Of a stretch of 64,000 nucleotides of DNA, positions 11,662 through 11,732 are shown piece by piece. The stretch covers positions 310,001 through 374,000 of the forward strand of contig OX597835.1 of the NCBI GenBank assembly GCA_951406725.2. Reading direction: 5' to 3'. Source of the DNA: Octopus vulgaris (Eukaryota). Under the pieces are notes generated by a model. It saw only the letters and a program-made list of their open reading frames with translations. It was not told the origin of the DNA and made no database searches. Every line of letters begins with the position of its first letter. The first letter of the stretch is position 1. The translations under genes and the position numbers were made by a program.

Positions 11662-11732
11662 CTTAAATCCTTAAAAATGTTTTAGCCCGAAGGCCGCGGC
11701 CATGCTGGGGCACCACCGCTGAATGAGCCACA

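Follow-up and report, generated by a model that had tools for sequence, protein, structure and literature searches.

Stringent pairs of long interspersed elements (LINEs) and short interspersed elements (SINEs), such as UnaL2/UnaSINE of the eel and those of zebrafish ZfL2-1 and ZfL2-2, have a shared 3' tail, a stem with compensatory changes, short terminal repeats and family-specific loops (PMC4176376, PMC3747384; here and below, statements on the literature refer to those parts of the cited sources that were available). In UnaL2, a bulge in the stem is important as well (PMC4176376, PMC3747384). The same combination was found in a 64,000-nucleotide stretch of the Octopus vulgaris genome (GCA_951406725.2, contig OX597835.1, positions 310,001 to 374,000; hereafter the window), where two LINEs, designated A and B, and a SINE, designated S1, end in a related tail of two predicted hairpins. 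A shared tail, a compensatory stem and a tail that belongs to the LINE itself, which are among the marks of a stringent-type pair, were all observed. The octopus tails differ from those of UnaL2 and ZfL2 in having two adjacent hairpins with a conserved G.G mismatch and in belonging to another LINE lineage, and the available passages of the SINE/LINE comparison (PMC4176376, PMC3747384) hold no octopus entry in the table.

Among molluscs, the bivalve elements CR1-14_CGi, BivaV-SINE2 and BivaCORE-SINE1, now reassigned to CR1-Zenon, resemble the octopus elements in that the SINEs share the tail of a CR1-group LINE, in which the stem-loops are conserved and show compensatory changes (PMC4824008, PMC11481361). 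The bivalve tail sequence is unrelated to the octopus motif (PMC11481361, supplementary file 4), and the word cephalopod is absent from the main text of that paper as available. Of the octopus SINEs OK, OR1 and OR2, OR1 is listed as a CORE-SINE (PMC4824008). Zenon elements are similar to the octopus LINEs in their CR1-group open reading frame 2 (ORF2) with endonuclease and reverse transcriptase (PMC6740152). They are described as devoid of ORF1 and ending in a poly-A tail (preprint bioRxiv 10.64898/2026.01.13.699120); under this strict definition LINE A falls outside Zenon, as it has ORF1-like frames and ends in short repeats, not poly-A. In the available part of an octopus repeat annotation from 2026, 893 of 900 recently active SINE families are unclassified, one is assigned to U and one to U-L1, and an analysis of partners is absent (PMC13282606).

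Chimeras of small RNAs and LINEs are also familiar. Sense U6, complete or truncated at its 5' end, joined by its U tract to the 3' part of a LINE, or to a partner SINE, is known for L1, L2 and RTE elements, the platypus U6-L2 chimeras having short L2 parts (PMC4476161, PMC11838501), while human tRNA/L1 chimeras are mostly antisense halves of transfer RNA (tRNA) (PMC11838501). For the passerine TguSINE1 and PittSINE, which have a tRNA head and a CR1 tail with a hairpin, birth or a head swap by template switching onto a tRNA has been proposed, with a single event (PMC5729268); in the octopus, dozens of independent raw fusions and one amplified product share the same edge. The octopus junctions likewise consist of a sense small RNA joined by its U tract to the 3' part of a LINE, the hallmark of a chimeric retrogene. 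They depart from the U6/LINE chimeras described in the available literature in that the LINE is joined at one fixed point, the base of the tail, and in that 5S, U3 and sense precursor tRNAs (pre-tRNAs) with their trailers are also among the donors. Shared tails and chimeras with U6 are already known; the fixed edge is the new part. Neither a fixed 5' edge of this kind nor this SINE/LINE pairing was found in the literature searched, which covered neither repeat databases nor subscription papers.

The evidence presented below shows that one LINE lineage and two SINE families, S1 and a second family H, have this tail as their common 3' end. It also makes it probable, in part by analogy with the systems just described, that the tail is the binding site of the ORF2 protein (ORF2p) and that its 5' end launches template jumps. 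A first-pass annotation of the window had recognized the shared motif. It overlooked the stronger evidence, which consists of the fixed 5' edge of the tail, its fusions to RNA polymerase III (Pol III) transcripts, and SINE H with the tail of LINE E.

The three 3' strings reported in that annotation, from LINE A, LINE B and the SINE, were found in the window as quoted. The interval given for the LINE A motif, 11662-11712, leaves out its first five bases; the real start is at 11717. The motif pattern had four matches in the window and none in each of 200 shuffles. When the 2.8 Gb genome was scanned, exact matches numbered 60,800 for the SINE tail (a 35-base pattern), 1,711 for LINE A and 5,778 for LINEs B and C; the reversed controls gave 0.

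An adjacent SINE fragment had been named as the possible source of the LINE tails. This reading was ruled out with queries made of coding sequence only, after which the downstream sequence was inspected. The whole tail was present in 19 of 20 LINE A copies (the remaining copy reaches a gap), both hairpins in 26 of 30 LINE B copies (local deletions or early ends account for the other four), and the tail in 20 of 20 copies of LINE C and 19 of 20 of LINE D. In LINE E, which is 74% identical to A, it was whole in 29 of 30 copies and had a short deletion in one. At least five LINE families, each represented by many copies, have the tail as an integral part; families F and G are single old copies, and family I also bears the tail. 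The protein searches for further families returned mainly one family each. Most terminal repeats are short tandem repeats (A, B, C and most E copies), those of family I and some E copies being A-rich. At ten metagenome loci with relatives at 37-63%, six had the same layout after ORF2, one was divergent and three were tailless. Separately, about 44 bases at the ORF2 end are duplicated in tandem in 17 of the 20 family C copies inspected (L181-L200).

The LINE A copy in the window is near full length and belongs to a very young family: all 150 scored matches were identical across 120 residues, many copies have open 1039-residue frames, and the top LINE A copies and the top C copies are identical. 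The closest named homologue of its ORF2 is from Argonauta hians (58%), and LINEs A and B have 41% protein identity. An ORF2 with an apurinic endonuclease (in A) and a reverse transcriptase, followed by short tandem repeats at the 3' end, agrees with the CR1 group, an architecture that also occurs in other LINE groups. From its C-terminal motifs we take the LINE A lineage to be of the CR1 group.

The pairing of the two hairpins was evaluated in 13 families, eight from this genome and five foreign, with registers fixed by sequence anchors; L174 (unfit register), L176 (same family as L178), the tailless contigs L177, L179 and L180, and families H and I (recognized later) were left out. Pairing was observed in 76 of 78 cells for hairpin 1, where shuffles averaged 67.7, and in 47 of 52 for hairpin 2, where they averaged 34.6; neither value was reached in any of 20,000 shuffles, and slid registers gave 20-34 and 7-24 paired cells, respectively. 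Within this genome alone, hairpin 2 was paired in 31 of 32 cells as compared with 27.0 in the shuffles (18 of 20,000 shuffles). In a MAFFT alignment blind to structure, all four hairpin 2 pairs change on both sides; only hairpin 2 was taken from this alignment because the 5' arm of hairpin 1 was out of register for the foreign rows and family F, and L171 was misaligned. The covariation proposed earlier was therefore confirmed for hairpin 2, but for hairpin 1 it emerged only with the foreign relatives.

Hairpin 1 is an interrupted stem of three pairs, a mismatch and at least three more pairs; the fourth position is unpaired in 12 of 13 families and is G.G in 11 of 13. RNA folding gave both hairpins in all six sequences folded, with z-scores of -1.98 for A, -2.94 for B, -2.14 for a young SINE copy and -3.11 and -3.67 for two foreign relatives; the decayed S1 copy of the window reached only -0.11. 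In the folds of LINEs A and B the linker pairs with two bases 5' of hairpin 1, so that the two stems may stack directly. The C(UUCG)G tetraloop of hairpin 2, to which importance had been attached, is real in LINE A, yet it is confined to family A and was ruled out as a key feature. As a separate observation, family D (L201-L220), an older family, has a conserved extension past the tail that is not a repeat.

S1 had been called the dominant SINE. A blind sample of 1.2 Mb contained 191 matches to a SINE that has a different tail, as compared with 184 for the head and 162 for the 3' body of S1, and because that SINE is as abundant, S1 is better described as co-dominant. The closest S1 copies are 96-99% alike. 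The heads of S1 and H have A- and B-box-like sequences judged by eye; the SINE heads had no Rfam match at an E value of 0.01, and ARAGORN found no tRNA in the window. In SINE H, a young family, the head and the first part of the body come from a third SINE family; what follows, starting at the same 5' edge, is a LINE E-type tail, which is identical to that of LINE copy L252 through GAAACTGGAAAA and is followed by a terminal repeat close to that of L252. The exact 35-mer of the H junction occurs 692 times in the genome, three copies being 96-97% alike, and the LINE E tail was found on 0 of the 18 copies of that third family's body listed from the blind sample and the window. By sequence, SINE H and a LINE E subfamily form a cleaner SINE/LINE pair than does S1. 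A tail with an AGCT/AGCT stem that was considered as a second SINE turned out to be mostly LINE E, part of the matches being SINE H. Two further observations concern S1: a third hairpin lies a few bases 5' of hairpin 1 (L138:2840-2920, minus strand), and older subfamilies have a T-rich run and CAA 5' of hairpin 1 that resemble a decayed fusion junction.

The proposal that a CR1-group clade mobilises S1 holds insofar as a LINE partner is likely at the level of the clade, as judged from the tails; the evidence does not single out LINE A or LINE B as the mobiliser. In zebrafish, L2 proteins recognise the stem in a general way but the loop with specificity (PMC4176376), which by analogy would favour the short-loop branch A/E/F/G/I over B/C/D as the one that mobilised S1. 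It is about an even question whether the S1 tail came from this clade through a partner that is unsampled or extinct, LINEs A and B never having mobilised S1. The S1 tail has 29-31 of 39 bases in common with A, E and F, the S1 copies predate the bursts of A and C, and the strict reading of the cognate loop by zebrafish L2 proteins (PMC4176376) is in keeping with a missing partner. On the other hand, loop 1 of S1, UCCA, is one base from CCCA, and UCCA itself occurs in LINE G and two A variants. An unsampled partner is compatible with the proposed role of the tail and narrows the choice of partner.

The 5' edge of the tail module was tallied by hand, over the 10-11 bases 5' of hairpin 1, among the first 100 matches listed for each family. 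For LINE A, 22 ended at 0 to -8, with nine at -4 and three at -5. For the E type, 45 ended at 0 to -5, 18 of them at -4, and none at -6 to -10. Eleven B/C matches ended near hairpin 1, nine at -4 or -5, and in family I about 38 ended at the edge, mostly at -3 or -4. The LINE A edge is about 35-fold above the rate in the LINE body (0.6% expected per nine bases, on the larger of two estimates). Across the genome, AAAT precedes 4,993 E tails, 3,356 of which have the next two family bases too, and 8 of the first 25 such AAAT tails listed truly end there. The four bases at the edge vary by family (CAGC, AAAT, ACCA, ATCA), which argues that the position follows structure rather than sequence. The window copy of LINE A itself runs on past the edge, other copies of the family ending or joining Pol III RNAs at -4 or -5; in two independent public runs, X15 and X16, the loose ends with the strongest support were at 11721 and 11722, with 47 weaker rows besides. 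Tail-only copies of S1 are rare (2 of 114). At several edge junctions (e.g. C1:10826447 and C1:138369975) the bases added repeat the 5' arm of hairpin 1 in reverse-complement form, as if the end of the complementary DNA (cDNA) had folded back and been extended by a few bases.

The Pol III fusions lie at this same edge. A run of five T occurs directly 5' of the E edge at 74 places; nine of the 30 examined had Rfam matches (two U6 and seven tRNA), and seven more shared 9-29 bases with a confirmed donor. For LINE A, Rfam matches were obtained at 9 of 20 hand-picked loci (U6, tRNA, 5S and U3, two being one duplicated locus), and two more matched donors. Two of 18 B/C loci were tRNA fusions and one had a weak vault match; the B-type loci with T runs at L395-397, L399, L400 and L403 were rejected as ordinary LINE ends. 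The fused tRNAs retain their 3' trailers and one retains an intron. Twice, the same tRNA and trailer were found on both an A tail and an E tail (L371/L357 and L383/L361), which indicates independent events. Many donors are 5'-truncated fragments of 10-45 bases in microsatellites, a donor with its trailer recurs with unrelated flanks, and many junctions bear 1-6 extra bases. The commonest single donor seen was U6.

Since these searches had selected T runs, U6 3' ends were listed without regard to LINEs (228 matches, the first 100 of which were tallied by hand). Twenty-one of these 100 were at LINE tail edges, five at the edges of SINE-type tails and one inside hairpin 1, while 43 were at SINE 5' ends, two were U6-U6 joins, 16 were presumed genes and 12 were unclassified. 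The joins to whole SINE 5' ends involved three families (31, 11 and 1 cases). The 12 unclassified ends had no match to the bodies of LINEs A-E, and several join other repeats at inner positions; U6 was also joined to a 5S-like sequence (L419). The occurrence of U6 at both the LINE tail edge and SINE 5' ends suggests that U6 treats the edge like the 5' end of an RNA. Further LINEs with C-termini that we take to be CR1-like have other 3' hairpins (L159:3700-4300, minus strand; L415, L417, L418); in one of these LINEs the inner position at which U6 is joined varies.

A mechanism can be proposed in which ORF2p would bind the two-hairpin module, as do the zebrafish L2 proteins their tails, and a 5'-to-3' exonuclease would trim the LINE RNA up to the protein-protected tail. 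Exonucleases are known to stall a few bases ahead of a bound structure. This trimming step, one among several conceivable mechanisms, is given a little less than an even chance. The enzyme would then copy the short tail template and either integrate or jump to a U-ended Pol III transcript, the jump being helped by an untemplated A that would pair with the U run of the acceptor. Untemplated addition has been mentioned for LINE enzymes (PMC6740152), and the extra bases at the junctions fit jumping with such addition. Where a fusion retains its T run, Pol III would stop before the tail, and most fusions would be dead ends; H, by contrast, was joined inside a SINE body. More tentatively still, the protein-protected RNA of about 50 bases may retrotranspose alone, accounting for 11-45% of tail-bearing copies, and act as a capture adaptor that writes proto-SINEs. 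If so, the module, whose conservation extends to distant genomes, would serve as a portable tag by which any RNA could become a substrate.

Several results weigh against this interpretation. Within this genome there was no covariation in hairpin 1, which is merely conserved (47 of 48 cells as compared with 46.9 in the shuffles), and the shuffle tests ignore the relatedness of the families. In family D an A.C mismatch replaces the outer pair of hairpin 2, and the fold of the single sequence deviates; two foreign relatives have a weak hairpin 2, and the excluded L174 was off-register. The LINE A body rate comes from sequence that lies more than 180 bases farther upstream, and close to the 3' end the true rate may be higher. 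The five U6 joins at the edge of SINE-type tails imply that the edge is not confined to LINE messenger RNA, which weakens the decay step, rare though tail-only SINE copies are. L392 joins a LINE B tail, at -4, to a 5' tRNA half whose end is the T run of the anticodon; thus, not every donor is a terminator-ended transcript. A target duplication test at ten loci gave a mean shared word of 6.9 as compared with 5.0 for swapped pairs, a difference that microsatellites confound. As for S1, none of the sampled LINE families has its AGTC/GACT stem, and its terminal units are of the AAAAGAGT type, unlike those of A, B, C and most E copies.

With the same binding site, the edge may alternatively arise during copying: once past hairpin 1, the enzyme would have stripped its own anchor, drop the full-length RNA a few bases farther on and integrate or jump, with no short RNA involved. 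This is possible but clearly less probable than the overall proposal. It would account for the edge in both LINE and SINE-type tails and for its constant distance from the structure, and the fold-back additions indicate a free cDNA end at the junctions, although they fit a protected tail RNA equally well. Release of this kind does not explain why tail-only copies number 2 of 114 in the SINE as opposed to 11-45 of 100 in the LINEs when the structure is equal, or why U6 elsewhere joins at apparent RNA 5' ends, 43 of 100 being at SINE starts. It is unlikely that an endonuclease cuts LINE RNA just 5' of hairpin 1 and that ligation of the resulting piece to small RNAs precedes reverse transcription, as has been proposed for human U6 and L1 in the RtcB model. 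The fixed junction and the prevalence of U6 are consistent with such a cut, but the 1-6 extra bases fit polymerase jumping better, the cut site has no common sequence among the families, and donors with trailers (pre-tRNA, 5S, U3) are expected to end in 3'-OH. That truncated LINEs were inserted independently into T tracts behind tRNA and U6 genes, the edge reflecting microhomology with AT-rich targets, is very improbable. In its favour, target duplications are not clearly seen, the E edge is AAAT, many targets are (TA)n and 12 of 45 E-type ends are at -2 within TA repeats. Against it, the ends of A and B cluster at -4/-5 although their edge bases (CAGC and ACCA) are not AT-rich, many donors are truncated fragments in microsatellites, and a donor with its trailer recurs with unrelated flanks.

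The gain of a SINE tail is usually inferred from single ancient events; here, raw fusions, a fixed junction and an amplified SINE coexist in young families, whose many open 1039-residue frames make the step directly testable. The edge would delimit the recognition element in vivo to some 45 bases, and a candidate partner clade can be named for a SINE whose tail occurs in more than 60,000 exact copies. The positions of the elements in the window are collected in the table.

Table. Elements of the window that carry the two-hairpin tail, and their parts.
Feature	Position	Strand	Remarks
LINE A two-hairpin motif	11717-11679	minus	starts 15 bases past the ORF2 stop
LINE A hairpin 1	11717-11698	minus	interrupted stem, G.G mismatch, CCCA loop; from sequence and folding
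LINE A linker between hairpins	11697-11696	minus	
LINE A hairpin 2	11695-11684	minus	GGCC/GGCU stem, UUCG loop
LINE A AAAAC after hairpin 2	11683-11679	minus	
LINE A terminal short repeats	11661-11678	minus	TTTAAGGA units; adjoin a long (TA)n tract
LINE A 5' edge of tail module	11718-11722	minus	-4 is 11721, -5 is 11722
LINE A ORF2	11733-14854	minus	two frames here: endonuclease 14854-14066, reverse transcriptase 14099-11733
LINE A putative ORF1	14692-15589	minus	two frames: Myb/SANT-like 15589-15374, CCCH-finger 15414-14692; both matches under the Pfam cut-offs
LINE B tail	20677-20630	minus	hairpin 1 20677-20651, hairpin 2 20648-20635, GAAAC, then TATCAAAG repeats
LINE B ORF2 (reverse transcriptase), 5'-truncated	20695-22110	minus	stop 17 bases ahead of hairpin 1
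SINE S1 copy	56396-56797	plus	head with A-/B-box-like sequences, microsatellite in body, tail 56742-56780
SINE S1 3' part with tail	1207-1310	minus	hairpin 1 from 1246
SINE S1 copy with tail	4859-5236	plus	hairpin 1 from 5197
SINE S1 copy with tail	9133-9416	minus	hairpin 1 from 9172
Older SINE S1 copy with tail	57853-58216	plus	

The tails of LINEs A, B, C and E are followed in most copies by (TA)n or related microsatellites (window positions 10490-11660 and 20180-20610; L061-L080 and L031-L060), which suggests a target preference. A decayed ORF2 end of the B/C type at 18150-18460 (minus strand) is cut off by a (TA)n tract before any tail. Another LINE, at 23121-25241 (minus strand), has a weak PHD match and is broken by a long TA-rich microsatellite; it is presumably RTE-like. 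Units of about 39 bases form a tandem array at 6983-7714 within a transposase-like remnant, the motif of which we take to be that of Tc1/mariner. The open frame at 49617-49991 (minus strand) contains an exon-like stretch, probably an exon of a host gene, that presumably resembles the end of a C2 domain. Finally, two open frames at 62940-63682 (plus strand) have motifs that we assume to be like those of a Helitron replicase.
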